64,000 nucleotides of DNA from Strigamia acuminata (taxonomy: Eukaryota): positions 9,114,001 to 9,178,000 of the forward strand of contig OX442314.1 in NCBI GenBank assembly GCA_949358305.1, in the 5' to 3' direction. Below, one piece after another: positions 1,345 to 23,506 of the stretch. The stretch's first letter is position 1, and every line of letters starts with the position of its first letter. The notes under the pieces were generated by a model, which saw only the letters and a program-made list of their open reading frames with translations, was not told the DNA's origin and made no database searches. Position numbers and translations under genes: made by a program.

Positions 1345-2477
1345 TGTCACGGCCCGTGTTTCCTACGCGTACAGTTTACGCATTGTTAACCCGTGTTTGT
1401 TCCTATTAAACCTAATTTTGTCATCTTCTTACCTTTGTTGTTTTGTTTGTGTTTGATTCGTGAGTTTTCCTCATTTTCCTTCTATCTTATCTCTTACTCT
1501 CTCCTAACTTTCTCTTCATTCTCTCACTTTTCTCTTATCTACTCCTAGTTTTTCTTCTTTAGTTTATGATTTGGATGCAAACTTCTTTGCATATCTATTC
1601 TGGTCATCACGCGTCGTCATCAGTCATACTCATCAGTATGCACCGACAGTGGTGATTGGCTCTTGACTCTTCCGTGATTGGTCAGGCTTGGTTGAGTCCA
1701 AGTTTACCTCTCACCCTATTTTTCCTTTTTTGCTTCAGTTGATCTCAGTATCCCGAACGCGTAGGTGCTCCTTTGGAGCCAGTGCTCATGGCTGAGGTTT
1801 AACTCCGAAGCTCACTCGTGGCTTTGCTTTCGCCCTGGAATTCTGCAACACGGTTTCAGGCTTTCATTTCATTTCGCGTGTTAACTCACGGTTTTACACC
1901 ACTCGTTCACCATTTGTTTTCCTGCTCCTTTTTGTTCATGTTTTATCGCCGTGACGCGTTATCCAAGGCCAAACAGGATTTGTTGGCCATAAGTTTGAAG
2001 TTTGTGTCTTTCATTTCGCTTGCGCGTGCGTTTAGCTTAGTTTAGCCGCCTGCCATTCGGGCTTTAGCTTTAATTAAGCATTGAGTCAGGTTTAGAGTTA
2101 GGTTTAGGGCCCGTGCGTTGTATAAGCACGAGTAAATTGCCCATCCTCGTTCAAACTCGACAGTTTGGGGTTGCTTATGAGCCACTACGAGACGTGCATT
2201 CGTTTGCCTTCGTGTGAAAACACGATTGTTGGCGGGTCACGCGTTGGGTTTTGGTTCAGACGCGACTACCGGACATTCTGTCCCCGAGTTTTACAGCTCG
2301 GGATACCCGGCCACAAATAAATATTAGTGTGGTGCACAGTATCTGAGAGTGTGTTAGCTGCCACTTCCTGCGCACATTCGATTTACGGCAGGTACGCAAC
2401 TACCAGGGTGTGTGAATTTACTGTTTCGCGGCGTCTTTCAAACGCTTCTAAACCACCTAGACTCGCGATCCATCACA
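1345..2477 (+). repeat. 5' LTR of the gypsy element
   Basis: TGTCACGG...CATCACA; same length as 11554-12686 and no differences seen by eye. Confidence 0.97.
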
Positions 2478-2479
2478 CT

Positions 2480-2497
2480 TGGTGCCGAAACCCGGGA
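2480..2497 (+). other. Primer binding site complementary to the tRNA-Phe 3' end
   Basis: TGGTGCCGAAACCCGGGA, 2 nt after the LTR; complement of the metazoan tRNA-Phe(GAA) end ...UCCCGGGUUUCGGCACCA. Confidence 0.92.
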
Positions 2498-2653
2498 ATA
2501 TCCCGTAGCTTTTCGATTGCTAGCCGTATAAACTGTTTCCAGTGGGCTAGTAATCATTATTCGGAAAACAAAGGTCGAGTGGTATCGTTACTCGCCTTTT
2601 TTAGAGTGGATCATCCATTTGAGTTTTGCTGCTAAATTGCTTGAGTTGACGCA

Positions 2654-4762
2654 ATGGCAGAAGGAGGGCATCCTAAAGAGGATAACTCCAAGAGTGTGTG
2701 GCCTAGCTGGATGCGTAGAGTAGGGGAGCGCTTGTGTGATGAAACTCCACGGCGTCCTCTTGATGCGCGTCCTCCGAGAACCCGCTCAGAGTATGGCTTG
2801 CCCGTGGCAAGAGGCGGTGGGCCGCCGTACCTCTTGCGACCACACGGGGATGTCACACGAGTAAAGGTAGAGGATAAATCCACTTCAACGGATAGTACCT
2901 ACTGCCCGGACACTACTCCGTCTACGCGTGAGTCTCGTGTCGATGTGTCTGCTTCGGATCTTTTAACGCCCGTGCAACCAAATCCTTCGGCGCCACCTCA
3001 ACAAAGGAGTAGTCCTGAGGATAACGTCGAGGAGGGGGATGAAGAGGCTGGTCAACGGCCTCCGGAATGGCTGCCGTATCTGCAAAATGCGGAATTGGCC
3101 ATGAATGAGCGGATGGTCCGAGCATTAAACCAGTTTGGTCAGCATGTTGACTACCGACTGGGAAATTATAGAGATGAGACTCTTGTGGGGGTGAGACAAG
3201 TGGTTAGGGCCGAAATCGTGGCATTAGCTGTACAGCCCGAGGAGGAGGTAATTCCACCAGCTCAGCAAAGACCTCATAACCCTTTGCCTGGTGATGGACC
3301 TCGTTCTGACGGTCAGAGGGAACCTGGGGGAAGTGTTCAGTCTTCACGCATTCTGACGCCTAGCGAGTTGAACAGGCAAGGAATTGCAGTAGTAGGAAGG
3401 TTACAAGGGGATGTAAATCCTCGTTTACCTTCAAAAGAGAGACCATCGGACGTGACAGCTCGCGCGGGGTCTCGAATGGGTACGCCCTCACAATGTAACA
3501 GTGAGGTGATGAGGAGTATTATACGCTCGAAGTCGACAGCTGTTAGCTTGCCGGATACAGCAAGTGTTGATCGCGCAGCAGCTGCGCGAGGGGATTCGGT
3601 AAATACGCGTTTGCAACGGGCGCGGGTCGCTCAGGCAGCGGTAACGCCGACGCCCCGGCAGCGGCCGCAGACGCGATATGATCAATATGACTTGTCGCAT
3701 GTGAGGTCGGAACATGTGCCGATATTTGATGAGGAGGATCAATCCTATAATGCGGTCGAACGATTCCTTGCAAAATTGCGCGCACATTACATTATGACGC
3801 GCATTCCGGATGAGGCGTATATTGACTTGTTCATTCCGTTGGCGCTGTGTGGGAAGCCCTTAAATTGGTACCTGCACTTACGCCATAAACCAAAAACATG
3901 GGATGAATTTGTTGTGCGTTTCCGGAAACGTTATTCCCTCAAGGAGGCCGAAGCAACGGTCTACCTAACGGATGCCTGGCAGGAAGTAGGGGATGATACG
4001 GCCGAATTTCTGTGCGAAATCAGTCGTTACCTCGAAATGATAGGTATTCGGGGGGATGGGCAACAGTGGAATATGGCGAAACATCGCCTTCAACCGCAGA
4101 TAACGGATGCAATGACTCGGTACGGAGTCCGCTTCATGTCGCAGGCCATAGAGATGGGGCAGGAGGCTGACAGCGAATTGGCGTTGCGTTCTCTTCAGCA
4201 GTATAAGTTCGATGAGCGCGGAGTGAGAAGAGGTCCGGTGCCTCGACCTCAATCCAAGGATAAGGATAAGCAAGCTGTTAAGGCGACCAAAAAGGTGGTA
4301 GAGCCTGCCAAAACAAAGGCGGCAGAGAAGCCTCCGCCTGGTCGCTTTCAGTTTGACAAACGGAAATTGGTTGCGTTGGCGGAAGTGTTTGGGGCTACGA
4401 GTGAGGACCTGCAGAGTGTTGCTGGGCAGTCCGTTGTTAGTGTTGCACCTTCGAGAGTGCCAGAGCCGCAAATAAACGCGTCTGTAAAAGTCTCGGAGAA
4501 TAAGCCGACTCCGGCTGTGGGGGCGGCACAATGTGGACATTCTGCCCACACCTTCGCCAATACGGCTAACCCCCCAACAACACCGTTGCCACCCGGAGCT
4601 GAATGGGTGCGCAATCGGAAGGACAGATGGTACATGCGTGATATTGAAAAACGCATCGCATTATGTCCCCACTGCTTTAAGCCCTGGCAGTTTCCGGGAA
4701 ACGACCAGGGTCCACTGTCCAAACCATCCAACGGAAAGGCAGTGGACCCGAAACCCAAATAA
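2654..4762 (+). CDS. gag: Gag (702 aa) with a retrotransposon capsid-like domain
   Basis: Long ORF after the PBS. Capsid-like segment VPIFDEED...LALCGKPLNWYL...TWDEFVVRFRKRY; no canonical CCHC knuckle. Confidence 0.9.
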   Translation: MAEGGHPKEDNSKSVWPSWMRRVGERLCDETPRRPLDARPPRTRSEYGLPVARGGGPPYLLRPHGDVTRVKVEDKSTSTDSTYCPDTTPSTRESRVDVSASDLLTPVQPNPSAPPQQRSSPEDNVEEGDEEAGQRPPEWLPYLQNAELAMNERMVRALNQFGQHVDYRLGNYRDETLVGVRQVVRAEIVALAVQPEEEVIPPAQQRPHNPLPGDGPRSDGQREPGGSVQSSRILTPSELNRQGIAVVGRLQGDVNPRLPSKERPSDVTARAGSRMGTPSQCNSEVMRSIIRSKSTAVSLPDTASVDRAAAARGDSVNTRLQRARVAQAAVTPTPRQRPQTRYDQYDLSHVRSEHVPIFDEEDQSYNAVERFLAKLRAHYIMTRIPDEAYIDLFIPLALCGKPLNWYLHLRHKPKTWDEFVVRFRKRYSLKEAEATVYLTDAWQEVGDDTAEFLCEISRYLEMIGIRGDGQQWNMAKHRLQPQITDAMTRYGVRFMSQAIEMGQEADSELALRSLQQYKFDERGVRRGPVPRPQSKDKDKQAVKATKKVVEPAKTKAAEKPPPGRFQFDKRKLVALAEVFGATSEDLQSVAGQSVVSVAPSRVPEPQINASVKVSENKPTPAVGAAQCGHSAHTFANTANPPTTPLPPGAEWVRNRKDRWYMRDIEKRIALCPHCFKPWQFPGNDQGPLSKPSNGKAVDPKPK

Positions 4763-7700
4763 GTCGGACGTTGGAGGCTTTAGATAGCACAAGCGGTTGG
4801 ATGGTACCCCCTGCGTTGCAGAAGACCAGTACCACCGCTCTAGCGGCTGCTAAGCCGAAAATGACAAATTTCATTATGTTGTCACCACCCGAATTTTTGG
4901 CTTCCAAAGAGCCGAAATTGATAATCGGGTTGAAGGACCGTTGTCGGCGAGACGCGGCCTTTGTTAAAATCGCCTGGATCAATATCGAGTTCATTGCAAT
5001 GATGGACAGCGGTGCACAGACGTGCATAATGACCATGGCATTGTATGAAAAACTCGCAAAAGAGATAGGCATAGAAATGGTGAAACTGGACGAAACCATC
5101 CGGACAGCCGACAATCATATTACCAAAGTGGTTGGCTGTGCACAACTAGCCGTCCGTGCTCCTACGGCGGTAGTTTGCTTTACTTGCCTCATCATAGAGG
5201 AGGGATCTCAAGAGCTCCTCTTGGGGCTGGATTTCTGCAAGGCAGTTGGTCTTTGTACCGACCACGCCAACGAATACTGGTTCCTCTTAGGGGATGGCAC
5301 GAGGCACCCCTTCCTCACAGAAGAGCAAGCTAGGGCATCTGATCCAGTGATCTTATTCCCTTTAACAAAGGAACAACCTTCCCTTCCGGAGGGAATTGCG
5401 GTTAAGGGGCCCCCTCTTTACAACCTTCCGGCTTTGCGAAATCCGCCGGTCCCCAAGCCAGAGGAAACGGCGGTGCCCGTCAAGCTGGTCGGCCAAAAGG
5501 AGCGGGAACTGACCCCCGAGGTTCCTGCAAAGGAGGAGAAGGCGGAGGAGAAGCCTGTGGTTGCTACAAAACCACCAATTAGTGAAGCTAACTGCGTCTT
5601 GCTGGGCAAACGTAATTTTGAAGTGGAGTTATTTGAGCCTCCACACGAAGACAATCCTTGTATTGTCAAAGTGGTTGTTGCTCGGAGAGGGCAAGACGCT
5701 CAAAAATGGACATTCCTATGGTCACCTAAGAGACGGGAAAAAACCGCACGAAGGAACATCGTGCGAGTTACGCGTAAACCTGGGAAAAAGGCCATGTGTT
5801 TGAGTCAGATGCGTCGAGCCATTAAGTTGCGTAAAGCAAGAGTTAAAGCGGTGGCTAAACGAACGTGGGTTGAGACTGCAGATTCTCCGAGTGGAGAGAG
5901 AAATGTCGTCAACAACGTGGAGCCCTCTTCTGCTTGTCAAAAGGCGGAAGGTACTCCAAGACAGCATGATGTTAATTTCGTCCAATACATCCCAAACAGA
6001 GATCCTACCAACCTCGCTTGGGTGTATGATCAGCTGTGTAACCAGTTGGAGCCAAAACGCATTAATCACTTAATGGATGCGTTGAAACCAGTTGCTCATA
6101 TCTTTCGTGAGGAACTGGGGCTCTGTAATAACACACAGTTTGAGGTGAATCTGAAGCCTGATTTCCGACCTATTCATGTCCCGGTACGTCCGGTGAATCC
6201 GGCAAAAAGGGAAATAATCGATGCCTATATCGACCAAAAGTTGGCGCAAGGAGTAATCAAGCGCTCCAAAAGCGACTGCGCCGTGGCGCCCGTAGTTGTC
6301 CCCAAAAAGGACGGACGCTGGCGCTGCGCAATGGATTTTAGGCCGATCAACTCCCAAACTTTGCCTGATGTTTACCCCCTCCCAGATATCGACAACATCT
6401 TTGCATATCTGGGTGGGGCAAAATGGTTTTCCATCATCGACGGAAGGGAAGCGTTCCACCAAATAGGGGTCCGACCTGGAGATGAACGATATCTCGCGTT
6501 TATCACCCACAGGGGACTCTTTGAGTATACGCGTATGCCCTTCGGTCCGATCAATGGCCCCGCCACCTTACAAAGGGCCATGAATTTGACTCTAGCTGAG
6601 CATCTCTACAAGTTCGTCTTTGTGTACATCGACGACATAATCGTGTTTAGTAAGACCTTCGAAGAGCATGTGACCCACTTGCAAAAAGTGCTCACTTTGC
6701 TCGACCAAGCGGGGTTTACAATGAACGCAGGAAAAACGGAGTTGTGCAAGACAAGTCTTGAGGTGCTCGGACATATTGTCGAGGAGGGACTTATTCGTCC
6801 TAACCCAAAGAAGACCGACGCGATCAGCAAGTACCCGGCCCCCACTAACTTGAAGGAATTACAACGCTTCAAGGGTATGATCGGGTACTACTCGTCGTTC
6901 TTTCCAGGATATTCCAAGACCTGCGAAGTCTTTCGAGTTCTTATGCGTAAAAATGCGCCATGGAACTGGACGGCGGCACACCAGGCAGCTTTCGAGTATC
7001 TCAAAAATCAAGTGTCGTTATCTACCTTGCACAGGAATTTCCCGGACTGGAGTAAACCTTACATCTTACAAACCGATGCGAGTTATTCTGGTCTGGGAGC
7101 CGCGTTGATGCAAATAAACAATAACGGCGTACGCGTCCCAATTGCCTTTGCGTCGCGGGCCTTAAACAGTGCAGAGAAAAACTATACGACGACGGAAATT
7201 GAGTGCCTGGCCGCCGTCTGGGCCGTAAAACGCTTTAGAGCATACCTCGAGTTGATGGATTTCTATCTTGAGAGTGACCACAAGTCTTTAACATGGCTGT
7301 GGGCCCAGCGCGAGCCAAAGGGCCGACTGGCGAGATGGATTCTTTCGCTGTCGGAATATCGATTCACATTCCTCCACTGTAGTGGGACAAAGAATCGGGT
7401 TGCCGATGCGTTGAGTCGGGCGCCAGTTGACCCACCGATCGAGCTGGATGACGAAGACTGTCCAGCGTTGGATGACACGTACTACTGTGCGTACTTCGAT
7501 GATTTCCACGACTGGCCAGTACTCCAAATGGAAGAGTTAGATGAGGTGACTCATTGGAAATCATCCAACTGTAAAATCGTTAGAGCGGTAACAATGCGTA
7601 AGCAGAAACGTGCGTTCCTGGCGAGATTGAACGCCTTGTCGGCTACGGCAGTGGATGTATGTCCGGTGGAGGACGAGCCCCCTCTAAAAAGAGGAAGGGG

Positions 7701-9807
7701 ACGTCCACGGAAAAATCCCATTGCAAAGGGGCCGACTCAGGCGGGACCCTTGCCGGGAGCACAGCCTGCTCTGCCAAAGTCGGACGAAGAATCTGTGGCG
7801 GTGTCTTTGCCTAAGGAAGACGTTCCTGTAAAAAGGAAAAGAGGTCGTCCGCGGAAGACTCCGGCCAGCGGGGATATGACGCAGCCTAAATCTTTACCCG
7901 TAACGCGTCCTATTCCACCAACTTCGGAAGAAGAGTCAGGTGCAGTTTCTTTGCCAATTGACGTTCCTGAGAAGAGAAAACGGGGGCGACCAAAAAAGGT
8001 TGTGGAGAAGCGACCGGTCGGAAGACCGAAGAAGAAAACTCCCATCATCCTCGATCGCTCTACGGGCTCGGAAGCCAGTGAAATGTCTTTGGACAGTGAG
8101 GAGCTGCCGGGAGACACGGACTCCGAAGAGTTTCAAATTCCTGTGATTCCACGGGACTTGGCACCGAGGACGCAACCACGGCGAGATTTGGCCTCACCAA
8201 CACCCTCTATTGATGCGGAGTTGCTTGACCACTCTGAGCACTCGTCTGACGAGAGTTTCTACTCACTTCCGGCGGATCATCCGACAATTGAGATTCTCCC
8301 AACACAGAAAGCCGTTAAAGAAGCCCAACTAGCCGATGAATGGTCTAAGGGACTTATATTATATCTCAATTCAGGGTCTCTGCCGCCAGGTGAGATGGAG
8401 GCTGCAGAACTTAAGAAACGAGCGGTGGACATGGCGTTACACCGTGGTCTGCTCTGCAAGTTTCCACCAACTAAGATCGGTCAACGAGCTCCTACGCGTC
8501 GTATTTACCTCCCTCAATCCCTTCGTTACAAGTATTTTCATTGCTTACATTTCCCACCAACCTCTGGCCATCTCGGGATCGAGAAAACACTAATGCGTCT
8601 AAAAACACGTGTGTTTTGGCCGGGGATGAAAAAAGATGTAGCAAATTGGATTAAAGTTTGTGAACCTTGTCAAAGGGCGAAGGTCGAGCGGAGGCTACCG
8701 TATGGCGAGATGGAGACCGCGAAACCGAGACGGTTGTTTCGGACCATTTACGTCGACTACTTCGGGAAAAAGTTGAAGTCCACTGGCGGACACTGCTACG
8801 CGTTCGTAATGGTGGATGCAGCCAGTCGCTGGGTGGACGTGAGACTCACCGAAAAGGCAGACGTTTCTACAACAGTGAAACAACTTAAAAAGTTCACTTA
8901 TAGATGGGCTTATCCAAAAACTATAATAAGTGATAACGCCCCAACCTTTCGCTCTGCCAAGTTCCAGGCACAGTGCGCCGAAATGGGAATGGTAAATAAA
9001 TATATTTCCGCCTATCATCCGCAAGGGAACTTGGCGGAAAGACTGAATCAATCTTTAAAAACGTGCATCCTCGCGTATATAGATGAACATACGCGTTGGG
9101 ATAAGCACATTGGTTCTTTCATTTTAGCAATTAATACTGCTTATCAGACCTCACTCAAATTTTCACCTTACATGATGGTCACAGGACAAGAAGCACGTTT
9201 TCCAGGAGATGTCGACTCTGACACTGACGACGGAGAACCCTTACCGCCAGATGAATCGCGTTTTCTTCATCGATACTTATTACGCATCCGTGAAGAGGCG
9301 AGGAAGAACTTGGATGCCGCCCATCTACGCCATAAGCGTTGGTATGACCGGAAACGGCGGCCCCATACGTTTAAACCCGGGGATTGGGTCACCGTCAAAA
9401 GTCGTGTTTTGTCATCAACTGATAAACAAATAAGTTCGGGTTTCCAACACCGGACTGAAGGCGTTTATATGATTCATCGACTCCTGGGACCAAATACCGT
9501 GCTCTTGATGGACCAGGACGGGAAGATTTCCCAACCTATTCATGTGTCGGATCTTCGCCATTGGTACCGGGCTGAAGAGCCGGAAATTGAAGTTTCCGAT
9601 GTCTCCAGTGTGGCTAGTGGGGCAGAGGATCACGAGGAATTGGATTCTGAGTTGGAAATTGATGAGGACATTCCCCAAGAAGACTTGGATGATATTTCTG
9701 CACGCGTTGTTAAATTCCAAACTGAAGTCCGTAGTATTTGCGTCGACTTCGAAGAAAGGAATAAACGCGTCAAAACATCGAAATTAGCGGCAGAAATCAT
9801 CTCCTAA
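4681..9807 (+). CDS. pol: Pol polyprotein (protease, RT, RNase H, AT-hook/acidic linker, integrase), probably expressed as a Gag-Pol frameshift fusion
   Basis: MDSGAQ protease; WRCAMDFR, RMPFG and YIDD RT motifs; QTDAS, TEIECLA and ESDHKSL RNase H motifs; HHCC (HFPPTSGH...CEPC), YVDYF, SDNA and GNLAER integrase motifs; no internal stops. Confidence 0.97.
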   Translation, partial: ALAVSGKRPGSTVQTIQRKGSGPETQISRTLEALDSTSGWMVPPALQKTSTTALAAAKPKMTNFIMLSPPEFLASKEPKLIIGLKDRCRRDAAFVKIAWINIEFIAMMDSGAQTCIMTMALYEKLAKEIGIEMVKLDETIRTADNHITKVVGCAQLAVRAPTAVVCFTCLIIEEGSQELLLGLDFCKAVGLCTDHANEYWFLLGDGTRHPFLTEEQARASDPVILFPLTKEQPSLPEGIAVKGPPLYNLPALRNPPVPKPEETAVPVKLVGQKERELTPEVPAKEEKAEEKPVVATKPPISEANCVLLGKRNFEVELFEPPHEDNPCIVKVVVARRGQDAQKWTFLWSPKRREKTARRNIVRVTRKPGKKAMCLSQMRRAIKLRKARVKAVAKRTWVETADSPSGERNVVNNVEPSSACQKAEGTPRQHDVNFVQYIPNRDPTNLAWVYDQLCNQLEPKRINHLMDALKPVAHIFREELGLCNNTQFEVNLKPDFRPIHVPVRPVNPAKREIIDAYIDQKLAQGVIKRSKSDCAVAPVVVPKKDGRWRCAMDFRPINSQTLPDVYPLPDIDNIFAYLGGAKWFSIIDGREAFHQIGVRPGDERYLAFITHRGLFEYTRMPFGPINGPATLQRAMNLTLAEHLYKFVFVYIDDIIVFSKTFEEHVTHLQKVLTLLDQAGFTMNAGKTELCKTSLEVLGHIVEEGLIRPNPKKTDAISKYPAPTNLKELQRFKGMIGYYSSFFPGYSKTCEVFRVLMRKNAPWNWTAAHQAAFEYLKNQVSLSTLHRNFPDWSKPYILQTDASYSGLGAALMQINNNGVRVPIAFASRALNSAEKNYTTTEIECLAAVWAVKRFRAYLELMDFYLESDHKSLTWLWAQREPKGRLARWILSLSEYRFTFLHCSGTKNRVADALSRAPVDPPIELDDEDCPALDDTYYCAYFDDFHDWPVLQMEELDEVTHWKSSNCKIVRAVTMRKQKRAFLARLNALSATAVDVCPVEDEPPLKRGRGRPRKNPIAKGPTQAGPLPGAQPALPKSDEESVAVSLPKEDVPVKRKRGRPRKTPASGDMTQPKSLPVTRPIPPTSEEESGAVSLPIDVPEKRKRGRPKKVVEKRPVGRPKKKTPIILDRSTGSEASEMSLDSEELPGDTDSEEFQIPVIPRDLAPRTQPRRDLASPTPSIDAELLDHSEHSSDESFYSLPADHPTIEILPTQKAVKEAQLADEWSKGLILYLNSGSLPPGEMEAAELKKRAVDMALHRGLLCKFPPTKIGQRAPTRRIYLPQSLRYKYFHCLHFPPTSGHLGIEKTLMRLKTRVFWPGMKKDVANWIKVCEPCQRAKVERRLPYGEMETAKPRRLFRTIYVDYFGKKLKSTGGHCYAFVMVDAASRWVDVRLTEKADVSTTVKQLKKFTYRWAYPKTIISDNAPTFRSAKFQAQCAEMGMVNKYISAYHPQGNLAERLNQSLKTCILAYIDEHTRWDKHIGSFILAINTAYQTSLKFSPYMMVTGQEARFPGDVDSDTDDGEPLPPDESRFLHRYLLRIREEARKNLDAAHLRHKRWYDRKRRPHTFKPGDWVTVKSRVLSSTDKQISSGFQHRTEGVYMIHRLLGPNTVLLMDQDGKISQPIHVSDLRHWYRAEEPEIEVSDVSSVASGAEDHEELDSELEIDEDIPQEDLDDISARVVKFQTEVRSICVDFEERNKRVKTSKLAAEIIS
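4696..4777 (+). other. Programmed -1 ribosomal frameshift signal (slippery heptamer plus stem/pseudoknot)
   Basis: G GGA AAC at 4696-4702 in the gag frame. The pol frame is -1 and open from 4681. Stem 4708-4719 pairs with 4738-4749; loop TCCAACG (4727-4733) is complementary to CGTTGGA (4769-4775). Confidence 0.85.
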
Positions 9808-10160
9808 TCGTGTCAATGTTTTTGTTTATTCTTTGACAATTTTTAGTGTATTTTGTTTATTTTCTCCGGTTATTGCACCTTTTCATGTTCATTCTGCGCA
9901 TGTCGGGACTCAAGTTCGCTATTTGTGATTGCTAATAAGCAATTTGCTCAAGTGGTGGCGCTGAACGTCATTGGTCAGCTGACCAATGAGTCAGTTTTCA
10001 CACATGCGTGTGACCGCCATTGTTTTTCCACTTGTTGAGCAACGCGTATGCCTCGTGTAAGCGGGCGGAGATTGAAAACGCGTCGAGGCGATACACTTGA
10101 GCGCCTGACGGTAGAGGATTTGAGCCTGTTAAGTGTGCTGGTAGCCTTTGAGATTTTATC

Positions 10161-10943
10161 ATGGCGGACCAGGACAGCAGTTCCGAGGGGGACGAATCAC
10201 TCGATTTTACATCGGATGAGGAGTTTTATGAGGATCTTAGGGGAAAGGAGTTAGCCCTTTTGGAGAAGTTGGACGCGATCGATTGGTTCCACCCGGAGGA
10301 CAACCCATATCTTGGCAGTATTACTGGATCGATCAAGGACCGAGCGATGTCCCGGCGGCTGGGTTGGTCAACAGATTTGTCGGGCCCCCAATCACAGTTG
10401 CCCATCCGACATCCGGATTTGGTGGCAACGGGTCCACGTCGACGATGTTTCGGAGACGCGTCACCTTTCAACATGCTTTCGATCCCTCGAGCCACCGACT
10501 GGGAGACGGCTATACGACACGTGGCAGCGAGGCAGCGGTCCGATGGAAACCGGATGCGATTCCTGGACTACCAGGATTTTCCAACTACATTTTGGGCGCG
10601 GAAGGGATTTAACGAAATTTTCCCCTTCGGCACCCTCGACTGGCAGTGTCCAACGCGTCGACGAGCGACGTCGTATATTCAGACAGACCCGGATTTGTGG
10701 CGGCAGTTTTTCTACGCCATCGCCCGCACCGAGCACGGATGGCCTGAATCGCAGGCCCATGCCATTTTGGAACTTCGTAACGGACAAATCCTCTTCCTGG
10801 AAAGTCTCATCGCAGACGTACTTACGCGTTACCATCCGCGTACGGAGAAGCAGATGGAGGATGTGCTGGTTTATCGCGTCGTTGGATTGGTGGAGGAGCT
10901 TCTCCAGCTGATGTTCCCGGACGGCGCCAGTGATAGTGACTAG
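10161..10943 (+). CDS. Extra ORF3 of the gypsy element (260 aa, unknown function, not env-like)
   Basis: ATG-initiated GC-rich ORF between pol and the 3' LTR. Acidic N-terminus; no visible signal peptide or transmembrane segment. Confidence 0.65.
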   Translation: MADQDSSSEGDESLDFTSDEEFYEDLRGKELALLEKLDAIDWFHPEDNPYLGSITGSIKDRAMSRRLGWSTDLSGPQSQLPIRHPDLVATGPRRRCFGDASPFNMLSIPRATDWETAIRHVAARQRSDGNRMRFLDYQDFPTTFWARKGFNEIFPFGTLDWQCPTRRRATSYIQTDPDLWRQFFYAIARTEHGWPESQAHAILELRNGQILFLESLIADVLTRYHPRTEKQMEDVLVYRVVGLVEELLQLMFPDGASDSD

Positions 10944-11540
10944 CCAGGAAGTACCATTGCGAACTTGGTGAACGGTTTCATGAACGTGACTTTTGTTTTG
11001 TGCGCAACTTCTAGGTTCAAATGGATAAGTCTCCATTTGGGCGCGTGTTTAGTTTTATTGTTTGTGTTTAGCATTTCAAGTGATATTTGTGAACATTATA
11101 TTTTACCCGACTGTGATATATAATTTATTTCGTTTGTTTTCCAGTGTTTTCCGCGCCTGTTGTACCTATCCGCGTGCCCGGGAGACGCCTCATTCCTCCT
11201 CCGAGAATCATGTGCCGGTGGAGATGACCCCCTAAATTTTCCTCTCGGTCGTGTGGATGGGTGCAATGAGCGTAGGAGTTCCAGCAATCAACGATTGCTT
11301 GGAAGAGTAAGTTTGTGTTAGTTTTAGCTTTATTCCAAGTGTCAATTTGCCTTACTGTGATTTGAGTTTATGTGTTAACGCGTCTCACGCGATTGTTTTG
11401 ATTTGCATCATGTTCATTTTTGATTTTGATTCGTTTATTTTTGATTGTGTTTAATTCGCTAATGTTGCGAGTGATTATGTTCTTGATTTTGATTTGATTG
11501 TATCGTTTCATTACTTCATCAAACAGAGTAATAAAACTCT

Positions 11541-11553
11541 GGCTGTGGGGGCG
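11541..11553 (+). other. Polypurine-tract-like G-rich element
   Basis: GGCTGTGGGGGCG immediately 5' of the 3' LTR. Confidence 0.6.
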
Positions 11554-12686
11554 TGTCACGGCCCGTGTTTCCTACGCGTACAGTTTACGCATTGTTAACC
11601 CGTGTTTGTTCCTATTAAACCTAATTTTGTCATCTTCTTACCTTTGTTGTTTTGTTTGTGTTTGATTCGTGAGTTTTCCTCATTTTCCTTCTATCTTATC
11701 TCTTACTCTCTCCTAACTTTCTCTTCATTCTCTCACTTTTCTCTTATCTACTCCTAGTTTTTCTTCTTTAGTTTATGATTTGGATGCAAACTTCTTTGCA
11801 TATCTATTCTGGTCATCACGCGTCGTCATCAGTCATACTCATCAGTATGCACCGACAGTGGTGATTGGCTCTTGACTCTTCCGTGATTGGTCAGGCTTGG
11901 TTGAGTCCAAGTTTACCTCTCACCCTATTTTTCCTTTTTTGCTTCAGTTGATCTCAGTATCCCGAACGCGTAGGTGCTCCTTTGGAGCCAGTGCTCATGG
12001 CTGAGGTTTAACTCCGAAGCTCACTCGTGGCTTTGCTTTCGCCCTGGAATTCTGCAACACGGTTTCAGGCTTTCATTTCATTTCGCGTGTTAACTCACGG
12101 TTTTACACCACTCGTTCACCATTTGTTTTCCTGCTCCTTTTTGTTCATGTTTTATCGCCGTGACGCGTTATCCAAGGCCAAACAGGATTTGTTGGCCATA
12201 AGTTTGAAGTTTGTGTCTTTCATTTCGCTTGCGCGTGCGTTTAGCTTAGTTTAGCCGCCTGCCATTCGGGCTTTAGCTTTAATTAAGCATTGAGTCAGGT
12301 TTAGAGTTAGGTTTAGGGCCCGTGCGTTGTATAAGCACGAGTAAATTGCCCATCCTCGTTCAAACTCGACAGTTTGGGGTTGCTTATGAGCCACTACGAG
12401 ACGTGCATTCGTTTGCCTTCGTGTGAAAACACGATTGTTGGCGGGTCACGCGTTGGGTTTTGGTTCAGACGCGACTACCGGACATTCTGTCCCCGAGTTT
12501 TACAGCTCGGGATACCCGGCCACAAATAAATATTAGTGTGGTGCACAGTATCTGAGAGTGTGTTAGCTGCCACTTCCTGCGCACATTCGATTTACGGCAG
12601 GTACGCAACTACCAGGGTGTGTGAATTTACTGTTTCGCGGCGTCTTTCAAACGCTTCTAAACCACCTAGACTCGCGATCCATCACA
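11554..12686 (+). repeat. 3' LTR of the gypsy element
   Basis: Direct repeat of 1345-2477. Confidence 0.97.
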
Positions 12687-14725
12687 AAGAAATTTCAATA
12701 AATATCAAGAAATTTCAATAAATATCAAGAAATTTCAATAAATATCAAGAAATTTCAATAAATATCAAGAAATTTCAATAAATATCAAGAAATTTCAATA
12801 AATATCAAGAAATTTCAATAAATATCAAGAAATTTCAATAAATATCAAGAAATTTCAATAAATATCAAGAAATTTCAATAAATATCAAGAAATTTCAATA
12901 AATATCAAGAAATTTCAATAAATATCAAGAAATTTCAATAAATATCAAGAAATTTCAATAAATATCAAGAAATTTCAATAAATATCAAGAAATTTCAATA
13001 AATATCAAGAAATTTCAATAAATATCAAGAAATTTCAATAAATATCAAGAAATTTCAATAAATATCAAGAAATTTCAATAAATATCAAGAAATTTCAATA
13101 AATATCAAGAAATTTCAATAAATATCAAGAAATTTCAATAAATATCAAGAAATTTCAATAAATATCAAGAAATTTCAATAAATATCAAGAAATTTCAATA
13201 AATATCAAGAAATTTCAATAAATATCAAGAAATTTCAATAAATATCAAGAAATTTCAATAAATATCAAGAAATTTCAATAAATATCAAGAAATTTCAATA
13301 AATATCAAGAAATTTCAATAAATATCAAGAAATTTCAATAAATATCAAGAAATTTCAATAAATATCAAGAAATTTCAATAAATATCAAGAAATTTCAATA
13401 AATATCAAGAAATTTCAATAAATATCAAGAAATTTCAATAAATATCAAGAAATTTCAATAAATATCAAGAAATTTCAATAAATATCAAGAAATTTCAATA
13501 AATATCAAGAAATTTCAATAAATATCAAGAAATTTCAATAAATATCAAGAAATTTCAATAAATATCAAGAAATTTCAATAAATATCAAGAAATTTCAATA
13601 AATATCAAGAAATTTCAATAAATATCAAGAAATTTCAATAAATATCAAGAAATTTCAATAAATATCAAGAAATTTCAATAAATATCAAGAAATTTCAATA
13701 AATATCAAGAAATTTCAATAAATATCAAGAAATTTCAATAAATATCAAGAAATTTCAATAAATATCAAGAAATTTCAATAAATATCAAGAAATTTCAATA
13801 AATATCAAGAAATTTCAATAAATATCAAGAAATTTCAATAAATATCAAGAAATTTCAATAAATATCAAGAAATTTCAATAAATATCAAGAAATTTCAATA
13901 AATATCAAGAAATTTCAATAAATATCAAGAAATTTCAATAAATATCAAGAAATTTCAATAAATATCAAGAAATTTCAATAAATATCAAGAAATTTCAATA
14001 AATATCAAGAAATTTCAATAAATATCAAGAAATTTCAATAAATATCAAGAAATTTCAATAAATATCAAGAAATTTCAATAAATATCAAGAAATTTCAATA
14101 AATATCAAGAAATTTCAATAAATATCAAGAAATTTCAATAAATATCAAGAAATTTCAATAAATATCAAGAAATTTCAATAAATATCAAGAAATTTCAATA
14201 AATATCAAGAAATTTCAATAAATATCAAGAAATTTCAATAAATATCAAGAAATTTCAATAAATATCAAGAAATTTCAATAAATATCAAGAAATTTCAATA
14301 AATATCAAGAAATTTCAATAAATATCAAGAAATTTCAATAAATATCAAGAAATTTCAATAAATATCAAGAAATTTCAATAAATATCAAAAAATTTCAATA
14401 AATATCAAGAAATTTCAATAAATATCAAGAAATTTCAATAAATATCAAAAAATTTCAATAAATATTAAGAAATTTCAATAAATGTTCAGTAATCTAAAGA
14501 AATAACAAATATTGAGAAGAAATACTAGTATTACTAAATATTGAGAAATATTGAGAAATATCAAGATATATTGAGAAATATCAAGAAATATTGAGAAATA
14601 TTGAGAAATATCAACAAATATTTAGAAATATTGAGAAATATTGAGAAATATCAACAAATATTTAGAAATATCAAGAAATATTAATAAATATTGAGAAGTA
14701 AGAAATATTAATAAATATTGAAAAA
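12687..14725. repeat. 20-bp satellite (~90 units, to ~14482) decaying into a 10-bp repeat (TTGAGAAATA/TCAAGAAATA), within intron 2 of a Star-like gene
   Basis: Read directly. The 20-mer is a dimer of two related 10-mers, TCAAGAAATT and TCAATAAATA. Confidence 0.98.
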
Positions 14726-14792
14726 TTTCAATAAAAATAGACATTTTTGATAGATGTCAACAAGAATTGGCAAATTCCAAATAATGACTTAC

Positions 14793-15792: not shown

Positions 15793-18700
15793 TTAATATT
15801 TAACATTTTTCTTTTTGAAAATAAAATCGTATGTATTTTTTTCAATCGTGATGTAACCCCTTTGTTTCATGAAATCTTCTATTTCCTTTGGTTCGTTGCT
15901 GCTGTAATGTTCAACTGCTAAAACATTGATGTTGACGTTGTGAAAGGGAATTGTCTTCAACACTGGCAACTCAATGCCTTCCACGTCCAGCACGAAGTAA
16001 TCGATAGTCGTTAAATTGGCGGCGACCAACAAAGAATAAACGGGAAAACACTCAACCCGAAACGAAGTGGAAGTTGTTTCGTTTATCAATTTACTATTCA
16101 TTCCGTTTGAACTCAAATTCATCTGTAAAACGCAACAATTTTCAATACCAACACAAATATATTTCATCATGCATTCAAAGTTTCAGTTTTTGCTATTTTT
16201 AGTGTTTCTATAAAACCATCAACAAAAGCTGTAGACTGGTTTTCCAAGTGATTTATGCAACCTGGTGTTGATTTTTAAAACCAAATTCAAAATGGCTCTC
16301 ACAGAAGTAGGATCGGGTCAAACAGCCAAATAGTTCGCCAGGTTTTCGTCTTTGCTTTTGATGTTTATGGAAACACCAAAAAAACCATAGAAACAGAAAC
16401 TTTGGATGCGCCTAAAATTTGATTATAGATGGCGTCGTCATTACTTCTTCTGACCGATTGTGAGGACTTAAGCAAGCCTCCATCAAATAGGATTTACGAT
16501 TTGAAAGCAACAACTTGGAAAAGTGAATAGGATTCGGTTCCACGAGAAGTCCTGTCCAGCCTAGGAATCGTTCCAGATAAATAGTCATTGAAAGTGACTC
16601 CGGGTTAAATGCACCGGCTTCAAAAAATGTCCCATTGCGCTTCTGTTTGATAAAAATAATTAAAATTAAAATTGACAAATTTAAAAAAAAATTACCAAAT
16701 TCCAGCAAAAACTATCATTTTCCAACAAAAATGGCCAAATTGTTGATAAATTTCAGCAAAAATTGACAAATTCTTAATAAATTTAAACAAAAATTGTCAA
16801 ATTCTTGATTAATTTCAACAAAAATTGCCAAATTCTTGATAAATTTAAACAAAAATTGTCAAATTCTTGATTAATTTCAACAAAAATTGCCAAATTCTTG
16901 ATAAATTTCAACAAAAATTGCCAAATTCTTGATTAATTTCAACAAAAATTGCCAAATTCTTGATAAATTTAAACAAAAATTGTCAAATTCTTGATTAATT
17001 TCAACAAAAATTGCCAAATTCTTGATAAATTTCAACAAAAATTGCCAAATTCTTGATAAATTTCAACAAAAATTACCAAATTCTTGATAAATTTCAACAA
17101 AAATTGCCAAATTCTTGATAAATTTCAACAAAAATTGCCAAATTCTTGATAAATTTTAATAAAAATTGCCAATTTCCAAAGAATGACTTATGTAACGTTG
17201 CACGAGCAACTTGTATAAATGAAACACTCTTTAAACTTATTAAAACTACGGATGGAGTCGGATTCGGATCGAAGGTTGTTGTAAACTCAAAGAACGATGT
17301 GGACAAGGTTACATTTGAAAAGACAGTGAAAATTTATTCAAATTTTTAGGTATATAACACAAAAGGATTAAGCTAATCCTTAAATTCCAAGAATACAGAT
17401 CCGGGTCACAAGTGAGCTTTTTTCACTTGCGCCACGGTGTTAAAAGACACAATTAAACTGGTTCACTTTGGAAACCGCCAGTTTCCACAGTCCCCCCGTC
17501 CCGGCAGACTGGGACTTCGGTTTCCACTTCGAGGTTGCATAGTCTCTGGATGGGTCTTCGTAGACGTGTCCCGTTGGACATCTGGATTTCGCAGGAGCGA
17601 ATCAAGCCGTCACGACCCTCCTTCACGGAGGTGATGCGTCCGAGCTTCCACGTAAGTCGCGGCCGGTTTTGGTCCTCGATGATCACGATGTCTCCCACGT
17701 TAAATTTCGTACGACTGGTGACGCCTCGGTGTTGGCGTAATTCGATTAAGTATTCCTTCGTCCAACGGTCCCAAAATCGTTGGATAAGCGTTTGTCGGTA
17801 TTTCCACGCTCTTAAGATGTCATCTTTTGATCCCGGATTGGTGGAATATTTCGGTGCGGTCGGCAGAAATGAAATGCGTTTTCCTAAGAGAAAATGAGAG
17901 GGGGAAAGGGGTAATTCTTCAAGAGGAGTATCATAAACATAGGTTAATGGTCTGGAGTTCACAACAGCTTCAGCTTCTGCGAGTATGGTCACAAGTCCCT
18001 CATAATCAAGTGTGTTCTTCCCAATCGTTTTCTTTAGCGCCAATTTCACGGAACGCACCATGCGCTCCCAAAAACCACCCCACCAAGGTGCAGTCTCAAC
18101 AATATATTTCCATGTAATTTGTTTCTCCGTAATAAATCCTTGAAACTGTTCTTCTGGTAAATATTTCAAAAACAAATTAATTTCCTTGTCAGTCCTTTTA
18201 AACGTTTTGGCGTTATCGGAGTATATAGTTTTGGGAATTCCTCGCCGACAAATAAAACGCTTCACACAGTCAATAAACTTATCGGTACTCAAGTTGGAGA
18301 GCAATTCCAGGTGAACTGCACGCGTCACAGCACATGTAAACAGGGCAATATACACTTTGTTACCCAATTTGGTGTAGAGAGGACCCGCAAAATCGACTCC
18401 ACATATTTTGAACGGTTCACTCGGCATAACACGATCAATGGGTAGCAACCCCCACTTTTCTTTGGCTAAACGTCCTTGTATTTTCCGACAGCAAACACAC
18501 TTGTGGATGATTCCCTTGATTGTTTTTCTCGCACGGGCGATCCAGAATCTCTCTCGAAGTCCACTCAATGTGTCGGCCAGTCCACTGTGTAAAGCTCGTT
18601 CGTGTTCGCCTAAAACAATCAATTTCGTTATAAAATGTTCGTTTGGTAATAAAAAGGGTTCGCGTGTATTGCGGTCAAGTTCGGCAGATCCCCATCGGTG

Positions 18701-21700
18701 TGTGGCTGTCAACAACCCATTGTCGTCTAATATTGGCGCCAACTTCAAAATTGATGATGATTTTTCAATTGGTTTTTGGTCAGTCAAACATCTAATTTCT
18801 CTCTGGAATCCCACTTGTTGTAAGTATTTCAGCCAATATCGTTCGCTCTGCTCGAGTTCCTCGTTTCTCAGCGGTTCTCCATCCCTGTTTTTCGTCTTCA
18901 GATTCGTAATATATCTAAAAACCCAAGCAGTAACTCTTTTTAGTTTTTTCCACGAGCTGAAACGGTTAAAATCAATGTCTGGTGTTGCTATTGCTGTCAG
19001 CGTCACGATCACGTCTTTTTCTTCATCTTCGTCGATTGGAACTGCTTTATCGTCTTCGTTTGGCCATCCGGATTCGTCGTCTGACAGCCATGTCGGTCCT
19101 TTCAGCCAGAATGGTTCCTCGGTGAGCTGCTTCACGTTTACTCCCCTCGTTACCAGGTCGGCCGGATTATCTTTCCCTGGGCAGTGGCGCCAATCGTCTC
19201 TCGATGTATTCTCGACAATTTCTCGTACACGATTGTACACGAATGTCGCTGGTCGGTTCTTGGTGTCGCGGATCCAGTGCAAAACTATCTTGGAATCGGT
19301 CCAAATTGTGAAATCTTCACACCCAAGAGTCGTTTTCAATGTTGGAATCAGTCTTGTTGCCAGTAGTGCGCCCATCAGTTCCAGCTTTGGTAATGTTAGT
19401 TCCTTTACAGGCGCCACTCTACACTTGGAAATGATAAAATCAATATTAACAGCATTTGTTTTGTCCAGAACTCGAGTGTAGGCTACTACGCCATACGCTC
19501 TCGGACTGGCATCACAGAAGATGTGAATCCTTTTCCTACAATTTCCTCCCCAATTTAACAATTTGCGCTCTAAATTTAAATTTTCGAGGTAGGGTATCTG
19601 AACATACCAATTTTCCCATTTTATCTTCACATATTCTGGAATGACGTCATCCCACCCAACATTTAATTTCCAAAGTTCCTGAAAAACAATTTTGGCAGTT
19701 ATCACAAAAGGGTTTGCCATTCCCAACGGGTCAAAAATCATAGCGGTAATCCTTACAATAAATCTTTTGGTGTATTTGGTCAAGTTAATCTCGTTAATCA
19801 ATGCACTAATGTCTAATCCCAATTTATCTAACTCAATATCCCAAACTACCCCCAAAACCTTAGTTTTCTTTTGAAAAACTGTCACGTCACAATCTGGGTC
19901 ATCTCGTATAATTTTCTCTTGTAATTTCACATCATTCGACTTCCATTTGGTTAATTTCATGTTCGCGGCTTGCAAAATCTCACGACTCTCATCATAAATT
20001 TGAATTAACTTGTTCGAATTGTCAATACTTGTTACAAAATCGTCTACATACAAGTCTTCTTTCAGCTTGTCGCATGTGTCCGGGTATTGGTCTTCAAACT
20101 TGTCGACGTGTTCTTTTACTGTTGCATTTAGTAAAAATGGACTGGGTCCTGTCCCAAATGGAACTCGAGTTTGGCGCAATTCAATTAGTTTTACCTACTC
20201 TTCACCGTTCCACCCGTCCTCAATCCAATAAAGTCGTGTGACGTCTCGTTCGTCCGTCTTGAGATGTATTCGATGGAAGGCTTTCTCGATGTCGCCGATT
20301 GCGCCGTATTTGCCGGTTCGGAACTTCAAAACAATGTTTATTAGATGAGGTAACATATTCGGCCCCTTACTCAGACAGTCGTTTAGCGATAAACATCCTT
20401 TTGCGTGCGACGACGCGTCATACACAATTCTTAGCTTTGTTGTGGCTCGAGTTTCGTCAATTACTGGTCGATGAGGGATATAATACGGGTTGTCTGGTTT
20501 CGAGTTCTTCGGAACTTTTTCCAAGATTCCGGAGGCGAGTTGTTCGTCGATCACTTTTTTATAGTCTAAATATAACTTGGGATTTTTTCGAAAACGGTTA
20601 ATTAAACTCCACAAACGCTTTTTTGCAACATCTCGATTGTCGCTCAATTCCTTGCGATCAATCTTCCACGGGAATCCCACTTCGTAATGGTCATCTACCC
20701 ACTCGATCTGCTCTTTGAATCGTTTCAACGTGTCCACTTCATCGATTCCCGGTTCCATAGTCTCGTGGCGAATCCCAATCGATTCCAAGTTCCAGAATTT
20801 TTCTAAAAGTTCATTTGTATTATCGGCAACTAAAATCTTGTTTACCCGCACTAAAGACGACACGGTTGTTTCAGTCTCTCCGGTTGAGCCGTGCAACGTC
20901 CATCCAAATATGGTTTCGATTGCCATGAGATTTTCATCGATGCGTTGCTGTTTTCCCGTTGTAACTCTCCAAAAGTTGTCGACGCCAATTAAGATGGAAA
21001 CGCCGTCGTCCCTGTGAACGCTGTTGTCGTAAGCCAGTTTGATGTTGTATTTCTTCAGTTTTTCCAATACTCGTTCGTCAGGTTTTCCTCGTAATGTCGG
21101 AGTTATCCAGGGCGACTCAAGCGCTTTGATTTCTAAATTGCAATTTCTATTTTCACAGTTATTCAAACTTAACTTCACCTGTTTCCGTTTGGCAATTGTT
21201 GGTTCAGTAGATCCGAAAGTCAAGAGGGCGATTGACTGCTCACCAATCTTCTCTAGTTGCAGTTCTCTCGACAGTTTTTCAGTTATAAAGCTTCTTTGGG
21301 ATCCCCCATCCAAGAAGCATTGGACTCTTCTCTTCTCGTTGCTCCCGTTGGCCTCCAACACGACGACCTGCAGGAACATCACGGTTTCCGTATTTGTTGA
21401 TTCTTGAACGGCCGAAGTCAAAGTTGTTTCTGTCTTCTTGTTGTCTTCCTTATCGCACAAGTACGTGTGATGTTTCTGCTCGCATTTCCTACATTTAAAT
21501 CGGGTATTACATTGACGAGCTTGGTGATTTTCTTTTAGACATCTGTAGCAGCGACGCGCTTTGAAACACGCTTCTTTCCGCTTTTCGACCGTCAATGGAC
21601 AGTCCGGGCTCTTGTGGTCTTCCTTTTCGCAAAATGTGCATTTGTAAACGATGTTGGAAAGGGCTGAAGCGGAACTGTGATTATTAGATTTGTAATTGGT

Positions 21701-23506
21701 TTTCTTCACCTCTTCTTTTTTGGTATTCGGGACTTCCGTCGATTCTTGCTGTGGTTTACTGGTTTTATCGGCGGCTTCCGTACGTTCGCGCATCGCTACT
21801 TCGAATCTAAAAAAGTCCAAAAATTCTTTAACAACCCAAGGCGCATCTCCTCGTGGACGTGCAAAATCATGTTGTATGCTGGTTGGCACAGCACGCGCGA
21901 GAATTGGGCATAACAATGGGCCAAAGGTTTCCGCCGGTACTCCGAGGTTTTCGAGGCTTTTAACATGCAGGTCGCAGAAATCATAGAGTCTCCGTAGGGC
22001 CGCCACATCTTCTACTCGTTTCACGGATGGCATTTCGAGCAGCTTGGCCATGTGCGCACCGACAATTTGTTCCTTGCGACCAAATCGATTTGTGAGGAGA
22101 GAAATGGCAGTGTCGTAATTTAACTCGGTTACAGTCAGTCCGCTGATTGCGTTCGCTGCAAGACCTTCAACTAACGAGCGTAGGTACACAAATTTGGCGG
22201 TTTTGGGCAACGCCGTATTATTGTGCACACTCAACTCAAAATCAGACCAGAAGCCCGTCCAGGTTTCCGGCGTGCCTTTAAACTTGGCGACCTCGAGCTT
22301 CGGCAGTTTCATCACTGCGCATTGTGGTTGGACTGGATTTGGGTTTTGCACAGGTGGAACGAAAAGAGGGTTAACTGGTGGTATATTCACGAGTGGTACT
22401 TGCGGTGGTTGTTGTGGTGGTGTTTGTTTCATTTGCGCGAGTTCTTTCAAGGCGACTTCGAGTGTGATTCGGGCGGCGGTCATCTCGTCTTGTAGTTCTT
22501 CCGCTTCGAATTCGTCTTGGTCCACCTCGTTCACGTCGGTGATCCCGTCGGCGATTATTGTGTCCAGTTTATCGATTTTCAAACGTTTTGTGATTAGTTG
22601 GGCTTGTATGCATAATAATCGTACCTCGTTGAGGGGATCCTCGGCCATTTCTTTTTTCAGTCTTTCAAAAAGCGCACGCACGCTTCCTCTTTGTGTTTCC
22701 CTTTGTGCACGACTTTTTGCCAAATCGTCCATTTTCGCGTTATGGTTCGTTTTCAAAAATGTTTCCCGGGTTTCGGCACCATGTAACGTTGCACGAGCAA
22801 CTTGTATAAATGAAACACTCTTTAAACTTATTAAAACTACGGATGGAGTCGGATTCGGATCGAAGGTTGTTGTAAACTCAAAGAACGATGTGGACAAGGT
22901 TACATTTGAAAAGACAGTGAAAATTTATTCAAATTTTTAGGTATATAACACAAAAGGATTAAGCTAATCCTTAAATTCCAAGAATACAGATCCGGGTCAC
23001 AAGTGAGCTTTTTTCACTTGCGCCACGGTGTTAAAAGACACAATTAAACTGGTTCACTTTGGAAACCGCCAGTTTCCACAACTTACCATTTTGAATATAT
23101 TCTGACATTGCTTGGCCAACTCAAGTGATCTTCCATTCAACACAAATGGATCCATTAAATTATATGGAGAAGTATTAGGTTTAATCAAAACCTCACTTCT
23201 AATATACTGAATTAGCAGTGGGTCCAACTGCTTTCTTCCTGATATATTAAAAAAATCCCATTGTATCTTCCAAACCTTTGAAACCTTTGAAGCAGGAGCT
23301 GAAAACAACCCAAAAAATTTCCAGCAAACAACAACAACACGAATTTTTCTTTCCATACTTATATTTTCGTCGACAATCCAAGAATATAACGCAATGGCAA
23401 CAAGAATAAGAGGTGATGATACTAGCACTATTGTTTTGATTGTTTTGCACACACCTTTTCGCTTTACCTGAGCTAAAAGGTAAGATTGATTATTGTGTTT
23501 TTCCAT
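15793..23506 (-). CDS. Star-like/FkbM methyltransferase-domain gene C' (exons 23506-23359, 23298-23087, 16642-16445, 16122-15793); Bel/Pao element in intron 2
   Basis: In-phase GT/AG exons; TM helix; motifs FFEAGA, LERFLGWTGLLVEPNP, CFPVYSLL, IDYFVLDVEGxE. Confidence 0.88.
16730..17175. repeat. Intronic 31-bp tandem repeat (AAATTCTTGATAAATTTCAACAAAAATTGCC); shorter degenerate version at ~36765-37025
   Basis: Read directly. Confidence 0.92.
17453..22732 (-). pseudogene. Bel/Pao Gag-Pol polyprotein interrupted by one in-frame TAG at 20197-20195
   Basis: KLPKLEV gag motif, three Cys/His knuckles, LDGGS protease, DIEKAF/RVPFG/YVDD RT, FCDAS RNase H, VDFAGP/SDNAKTF/GGFWER integrase. The two track ORFs share one frame. 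Confidence 0.9.
22764..22781 (-). other. Primer binding site (tRNA-Phe) of the Bel/Pao element
   Basis: Minus strand TGGTGCCGAAACCCGGGA directly after the 5' LTR. Confidence 0.9.

Follow-up and report, generated by a model that had tools for sequence, protein, structure and literature searches.

Why should a single palindromic hexamer, ACGCGT, recur throughout a retrotransposon, in its genes as well as between them? The question is raised by a Ty3/gypsy element at positions 1345-12686 of a 64,000-nucleotide stretch of Strigamia acuminata DNA (contig OX442314.1, positions 9,114,001 to 9,178,000 of the forward strand), here called the window, to which all coordinates refer. A preliminary description had reported 28 ACGCGT sites in the element. 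All 23 coordinates that it listed are exact, and the right long terminal repeat (LTR) adds the other five. Of 39 sites in the whole window, 28 belong to the element and 5 to an inverted LTR at 1-1060; the remaining 51 kb contains 6. Since the two LTRs of the element are identical, one was counted, leaving 23 independent sites in 10,209 bp. Markov models of orders 0, 1, and 2 predict 2.45, 2.35, and 2.87 sites (p about 1e-13 to 1e-15), and an order 3 model predicts 7.7 (p 6e-6). ACGCGT is the top of the 2,080 strand-pooled hexamers in the element (p 8e-14, order 2). The excess that had been described is thus present, at about 8-9-fold instead of the ten-fold first estimated.

The enrichment also withstood null models that take CpG and codon content into account, under which it had been thought that it might disappear. 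In the open reading frames (ORFs) of the element, gag, pol, and ORF3, 15 sites were found, against a mean of 2.5 and a maximum of 9 in 3,000 synonymous shuffles; the non-coding parts hold 8, against 0.58 (maximum, 4 in 1,000 randomisations). Taken singly, pol has 9 sites (1.3 expected; reached by 0/3,000 shuffles) and ORF3 has 3 (0.3 expected; reached by 2/3,000), while the 3 in gag (1.0 expected) were reached by 216/3,000 shuffles and are not significant. When first bases and codon junctions were also fixed, the coding expectation was 3.9, with a maximum of 12 in 2,000 shuffles. Under this strict codon null, the observed log p was -4.8 and the best word of any of the 500 shuffles examined reached -5.4, so the coding part of the excess is only moderately significant family-wise. 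Thr-Arg pairs are spelled ACG CGT in 9 of 16 cases, compared with the 7% predicted by codon usage. The coding sites occupy all three reading frames, with 6 of them outside the ACG CGT frame.

CGCG alone is barely raised in the element (56 against 46), the observed/expected ratio of CpG is 1.06, and most other palindromes with CG stand at background. Among the 18 one-mismatch neighbours of ACGCGT, one pair, ATGCGT/ACGCAT, is clearly raised (14 against 4.8) and occurs on both strands (9 ATGCGT and 5 ACGCAT). CpG decay is an unlikely source of this variant, as ACGTGT, which such decay would also produce, shows no increase. The flanks of the ACGCGT sites are unrelated, except that C is mildly avoided before ACGCGT, which suggests that the sites arose singly through point changes. 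All 23 sites remain after repeated 20-mers are masked, and no tandem array covers them. With unrelated flanks and this result of masking, tandem duplication is not the cause of the excess. Site density is 4.4 per kb in the LTR and 5.7 per kb in the spacer between pol and ORF3, against 1.4-1.8 per kb in gag and pol and 2.3 per kb over the whole body. Along gag-pol, the sites are spaced a little more evenly than expected at random (P 0.035), and no nucleosome-scale periodicity was found (best period, 325 bp; P 0.066).

Outside the gypsy family, the word is at background within the window, as the preliminary description had stated: 2 sites against 1.3 in the Bel/Pao region and 4 against 3.8 in the last 40 kb, which is host DNA that includes gene regions. 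A control set of 157 other reverse-transcriptase loci (92 gypsy-like and 65 plant-pararetrovirus-like) likewise showed no excess (98 sites against 104 expected), and in only 2 of these 157 loci was the top word stronger than ACGCGT is in the gypsy element. The ACGCGT excess is real and, within the window, specific to the gypsy family.

Other gypsy elements were found to be tiled with other words. The strict codon null was run on 87 of the gypsy loci (5 of the 92 were left out for want of a long ORF), and four passed a log p of -4.6: L086, with TTGCCGG (46 against 3.8); L096, with GCACCGG (26 against 2.9); L141, with CCCGCCA (22 against 1.1); and L104 (1-9910), with CAGGTA (17 against 3.5 in ORFs, on both strands and often as CAGGTAG). 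The sister of L141, L115, carries CCCGTCA (26 against 1.5, partly in local repeats), a word that differs by one base from that of L141. L126 (CGGATC), L106 (GATACG), and L116 (CGGAAA) are weaker cases. Each of these words was chosen post hoc and is near background in almost all other loci, and close relatives of each of the four passing loci lack its word. L086, L096, and L141, together with L115, L126, L106, and L116, group in a single 25-locus clade (FastTree support, 0.996), which excludes L104. The strongest tiled elements of this clade, which come from metagenome contigs and whose words differ and contain CpG, exceed the case in the window. The top words of L119 and L153 were rejected as tiling, being local clusters. 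As a separate observation, a pararetrovirus-like locus, L020, has GGCCCA 22 times in its long ORF, against 7.1 in codon shuffles.

Small ORFs with a C2H2-like finger are present in the clade, 3' of the integrase where checked: L115:1925-2710, L120:7821-8678, L119:900-1478, L105:3458-4129, L090:6755-8137, and L086:7854-8075. In L115 and L119/L120, the finger is followed by an Arg-rich helix. The three that were scanned (L115, L119, and L120) had no Pfam match. The products of these ORFs are candidate element-encoded DNA readers.

The ACGCGT sites in the gypsy element are likely under selection. By analogy with the plant proteins VANC and TnpA, our tentative interpretation, which we would place somewhat short of probable, is that they are selected docking sites read by a protein that the element itself encodes. 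One sequence-specific protein would bind ACGCGT in the LTRs, in the spacer, and at synonymous positions of all three genes; the ORF3 product would be its most likely reader and would coat cognate copies, keeping them open and transcribed. We infer each of these steps: protein binding on DNA, ORF3 as that protein, and an outcome of activation or anti-silencing. Selection acting to multiply a single protein-binding site would leave such a pattern. A silencer seems a less suitable reader, since a host silencer would be expected to drive loss of sites and not gain. The earlier proposal that the element is "tiled with binding sites" remains the best reading of its sequence, and it gains strength from the gypsy elements that are tiled with different words.

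The earlier suggestion of ORF3 as the factor is not supported by a recognisable DNA-binding domain, although ORF3 is a constrained gene. Variants of the gypsy family were taken from three public sequencing runs of one organism, belonging to two studies; the window may derive from one of them. Many variants are present, and 40 of about 1587 over the element were listed, with differences near piece ends apparently omitted from the contig-piece table. Among the 40 listed variants, synonymous third-position changes account for 9 of the 10 in ORF3 (P 3.6e-4), for 14/17 in pol, and for 6/6 in gag. ORF3 is therefore a real, constrained gene. Its product has an acidic N-terminus and a helical C-terminal domain, and the structural model had a predicted local distance difference test score (pLDDT) of 37 as a whole and 67 for the C-terminal 92 aa. 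A weak match to a repetitive Cys-rich protein (E 5e-4) was judged spurious, and sigma-factor-like helical matches with Z up to 5.6 lie inside the method's stated noise. Neither env nor any other Pfam family was matched by ORF3.

The sites could be followed in related copies only weakly. An inverted LTR copy at 1-1060 is 96% identical to the LTR of the element, with 29 mismatches and 11 gap bases in 1,066. It retains all five ACGCGT sites, as the preliminary description had noted; this retention carries no weight for conservation, because all 30 bases would be kept by chance with a probability of roughly 0.4. Two observations tell more. An X3 contig piece that lies over 9691-9923 carries 10 substitutions, all of them listed, and 8 gaps, with no listed change in the sites at 9702 and 9765. 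In a diverged subfamily present in the three runs, the site at 10078 is kept in register within a 30-letter stretch of which 19 letters are identical.

Several observations weigh against an element-encoded reader. Listed variants inside ACGCGT sites numbered 0/40 and 0/28, against 0.5 and 1.6 expected; this comparison points towards conservation but is under-powered, and a Thr-Arg of an upstream ORF may contribute to the retention of the site at 10078. Of the C>T and G>A changes listed, 9/27 fell at CpG, against a background of 26%, showing no CpG hypermutability, and three duplicated host segments gave a weak CpG excess with small counts (13/338 against 28/1,363). Because the listed changes are not concentrated at CpG and the excess in host DNA is weak, methylation that such a reader might counter is not clearly indicated. 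In a report on annelids, methylation loss upregulates LTR elements in Owenia, and methylation of transposable elements varies among annelids (PMC11292947). ORF3 had no match in a Pfam scan, no homologue in a homologue search, and no match in a protein atlas, and its helical C-terminal domain, as modelled, had no fold match (best Z, 5.6). In a similarity search it was also unlike the zinc-finger ORF3s of the control clade, from which the window element is separated by at least 1.4 substitutions per site. Within that clade, the finger ORF occurs without a dispersed coding motif in L090, L105, and L119/L120, and the association of tiling with the clade is weak (3/24 against 1/63; Fisher p 0.06). 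L104 points to host factors, since it is tiled with CAGGTA, which we take to be the Zelda word. Finally, TnpA requires clusters of at least four motifs, and the gypsy element, with 2.3 sites per kb, is less dense than this.

The plant systems show how far the likeness extends. VANC and TnpA each recognise motifs peculiar to their own family and bind them on cognate copies (PMC5735166; bioRxiv 10.64898/2026.08.24.746577). The Arabidopsis VANDAL/VANC system (Hosaka 2017, PMC5735166; PMC6719617; PMC13547354) resembles the gypsy element in having many short family-specific motifs together with an accessory gene, and related families differ in motif. VANDALs are plant Mutator-like DNA transposons whose 8-9-nt motifs lie in non-coding tandem repeats and whose reader is proven to remove methylation. 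The element in the window, in contrast, is an animal LTR retrotransposon in which a 6-nt palindrome is dispersed singly, with 15 of 23 sites inside ORFs, a reader that is putative, and no methylation signal. In Spm/CACTA elements, family-specific motifs diversify in step with the phylogeny of the element, which itself encodes their reader, TnpA. This protein, however, is transposase-derived and binds at termini, and it requires densely clustered motifs, leaving low-density regions, at 2 per kb, unbound (bioRxiv 10.64898/2026.08.24.746577). The word "retrotransposon" is absent from the main text of that preprint.

Like the motifs of VANC and TnpA, ACGCGT is abundant in its cognate element (23 against 2.9) and without excess in the Bel/Pao element, the host DNA of the window, and the 157 control loci, and the accessory protein, ORF3, is under selection, with 9/10 of its listed variants synonymous. 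The plant motifs are repeated in tandem in non-coding DNA or clustered at termini, whereas 15 of the 23 sites here are in ORFs and form no tandem array. As to homology of ORF3 with VANC (MAIN/PMD-like) or TnpA, comparisons by Pfam, by sequence, and by fold, the last with a model of low pLDDT, gave ORF3 no match at all. Because the likeness is indirect and clustering in non-coding DNA was not found, the gypsy element is not classed as a member of either system.

Two known readers of the word had also been proposed. The yeast MluI cell-cycle box is ACGCGT, and it is bound by MBF/Mbp1, a fungal KilA-N/APSES protein that acts at promoters. A Pfam scan found no KilA-N domain in the ORFs of the gypsy element, and the proposal of this fungal reader is not supported. 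The other was CAMTA, a family that is present in animals and whose CG-1 box is (A/C/G)CGCG(T/C/G) (PMC10417383). ACGCGT fits this consensus, but ATGCGT, which is no CAMTA word, is raised in the element, and the five other classes of the consensus, together with ACGTGT and CCGTGT, are not enriched (observed/expected: ACGCGC, 4/5.9; ACGCGG, 4/5.7; CCGCGC, 5/5.8; CCGCGG, 1/2.9; GCGCGC, 1/3.0; ACGTGT, 4/4.8; CCGTGT, 5/4.8). Since the rest of the consensus is not enriched, CAMTA is an unlikely reader.

Three other explanations have to be weighed against a reader encoded by the element. All of the enrichment evidence would fit equally well if ACGCGT were a selected docking site for a pioneer factor or activator of the host, such as a protein of the germline or early embryo that reads a CpG-containing word, and ORF3 did something else. 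The higher densities in LTR and spacer (4.4 and 5.7 against 1.4-1.8 per kb), the tiling of L104 through gag and pol with a presumed Zelda word, and the want of a DNA-binding fold match for ORF3 all agree with a host factor, and we regard one as a possibility to be taken seriously, if with some doubt. No candidate fits, however: CAMTA variants are not enriched, and the E2F-like words TTTCGCGC and TTTGGCGC each occur 0 times in the gypsy element. The host DNA of the window is without excess even with its gene regions included (4 against 3.8), and the word changes between close relatives within the control clade, as is easier if the reader is inherited along with it. If a host factor does read ACGCGT, regulatory selection on retrotransposon coding DNA would still have been shown.

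An action in RNA appears improbable. Self-complementary ACGCGU patches could serve dimerisation or packaging, or the sites could be bound by an export factor, possibly a Rev-like ORF3 product; Cer1 CERV is reportedly a retrotransposon export factor. The sites are spread along the whole transcript, and the word, as a perfect 6-nt palindrome, leaves its own strand uninformative; in several control elements, words are strand-biased, with sense-strand shares of 47/56 in L096, 21/27 in L141, and 14/15 in L116. Predicted single-strandedness, however, is 0.036 at the sites and 0.039 in GC-matched hexamers (P 0.50; median P 0.08), so that in these predicted local folds the sites do not lie in kissing loops. 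Retroviral-type dimerisation uses a palindrome exposed in a hairpin loop, and here predicted accessibility equals background. The ATGCGT variant occurs on both strands, as do the words of L086 (22/50) and L104 (8/16). We favour an action on DNA because the sites are unexposed in the predicted RNA folds and parallel elements use both strands. Less probable still, in our judgment, is a neutral by-product, whether of biased codon pairs or CpG bias, of hidden repeats, or of a signature that was mutational or left by an earlier host genome. The fall of the excess from 8-fold to 3-4-fold as nulls tighten (7.7 expected under order-3 Markov, 3.9 under the strict codon null) is what such a by-product might leave, yet the excess is significant under every null, CGCG stands at 56 against 46 with a CpG ratio of 1.06, and other CG palindromes are mostly at background. 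Unrelated flanks, the 23 sites left by 20-mer masking, and the mere 2 of 157 control loci with a stronger top word also speak against it.

Self-encoded, sequence-specific anti-silencing is established in plant DNA transposons; four reports (PMC5735166; PMC6719617; bioRxiv 10.64898/2026.08.24.746577; PMC13547354), in the passages covered, describe none in an animal LTR retrotransposon. No report of an ACGCGT motif or of word tiling in an animal LTR retrotransposon was found among the search listings of the literature, whose coverage is partial. A broader proposal, which we consider on balance unlikely, is that animal gypsy elements have VANC-like systems in which a fast-evolving third gene reads a family-specific word spread over the entire element, synonymous codons included, and both change together between lineages; the window element (ACGCGT and ORF3) and the finger-ORF clade (TTGCCGG, GCACCGG, CCCGTCA, and CCCGCCA) would be two instances. 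If this is true, orphan third ORFs of gypsy elements acquire a role, and nature supplies a small collection of reader-motif pairs. A family-specific word dispersed among the codons of gag and pol is a signature open to direct testing: it supplies the probe and points to a candidate for the reader. Simple screening by k-mers turned up 4 further cases among the 87 control gypsy loci.

The element that carries the word is intact and young, with 0/1,133 mismatches between its LTRs. It has two TG...CA LTRs and a primer-binding site, and the Pfam matches in pol follow the Ty3/gypsy order of protease, reverse transcriptase, RNase H, and integrase. All of its parts lie on the plus strand. The 5' LTR (1345-2477; 1,133 bp) has ACGCGT at 1365, 1609, 1757, 1954, and 2239, and is followed by the primer-binding site at 2480-2497, which we take to match the 3' end of tRNA-Phe. 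The gag ORF (2654-4762), with sites at 2924, 3605, and 4476, has a weak Retrotrans_gag match (E 0.007). It overlaps pol, and a GGGAAAC slippery heptamer at 4696-4702 within the overlap suggests a -1 frameshift. The pol ORF (4681-9807) has sites at 5770, 6529, 7131, 7903, 8494, 8798, 9091, 9702, and 9765. Between its RNase H and integrase lie four GRP[RK] motifs (7699-8031) without a Pfam match, which are presumably AT-hook-like. The spacer between pol and ORF3 (9808-10160) has sites at 10042 and 10078. A 68-codon basic upstream ORF (10048-10254) overlaps the start of ORF3 in another frame, and its Arg-rich start is seemingly kept in the diverged subfamily. ORF3 (10161-10943; 260 aa) has sites at 10456, 10653, and 10824, and the 3' untranslated region (10944-11553) has one at 11378. 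The 3' LTR (11554-12686), identical to the 5' LTR, has sites at 11574, 11818, 11966, 12163, and 12448.

In its LTRs, primer-binding site, gag, order of pol domains, and third ORF after the integrase, the element resembles Ty3/gypsy elements with an additional ORF. It differs from them in that its closest pol relatives are about 43% identical across reverse transcriptase and RNase H, its ORF3 has no Pfam family, and its pol has the AT-hook-like motifs. A scan of viral and metagenome contigs with a single reverse-transcriptase protein found no relative, and an alignment query returned only distant elements of at most 42% identity. A second family member, truncated by the start of the window, is represented by the inverted LTR at 1-1060 on the minus strand, with sites at 162, 447, 644, 792, and 1035. 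A 20-bp AT-rich satellite flanks the gypsy element on the left (1061-1344) and on the right (12687-14735), and both copies of the family adjoin an identical phase of its repeat unit. These junctions, with the AT-hook-like motifs just before the integrase, make satellite-targeted integration possible; a literature search gave no relevant result.

Other features of the window were noted in passing. A 44-aa exon of a host kinase had its best named matches in Capitella, Ridgeia, and Lamellibrachia, and by this single exon the host DNA looks annelid-like. The Bel/Pao element (17190-23080, minus strand) has a primer-binding site that starts like that of the gypsy element. A solo LTR of another family (28924-29597) has TG...CA ends, an ATTT duplication, and no ACGCGT. 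In it TGCGC occurs 8 times against 0.55 under an order-1 model; this excess was not counted as support, since as a hexamer it reached a log p of only -2.8 under order 2, and a GCGCCA excess in the Bel/Pao element, which weakens likewise under order 2, was not counted either. By eye from translated exons, an RNase H1-like gene lies in an inverted duplication at 43604-46359 that is 95% identical over 1.18 kb. Between 14800 and 42500 there is a tandem array of small genes with 98.5% identical duplicated blocks, whose translated exons presumably encode FkbM/Star-like methyltransferases.

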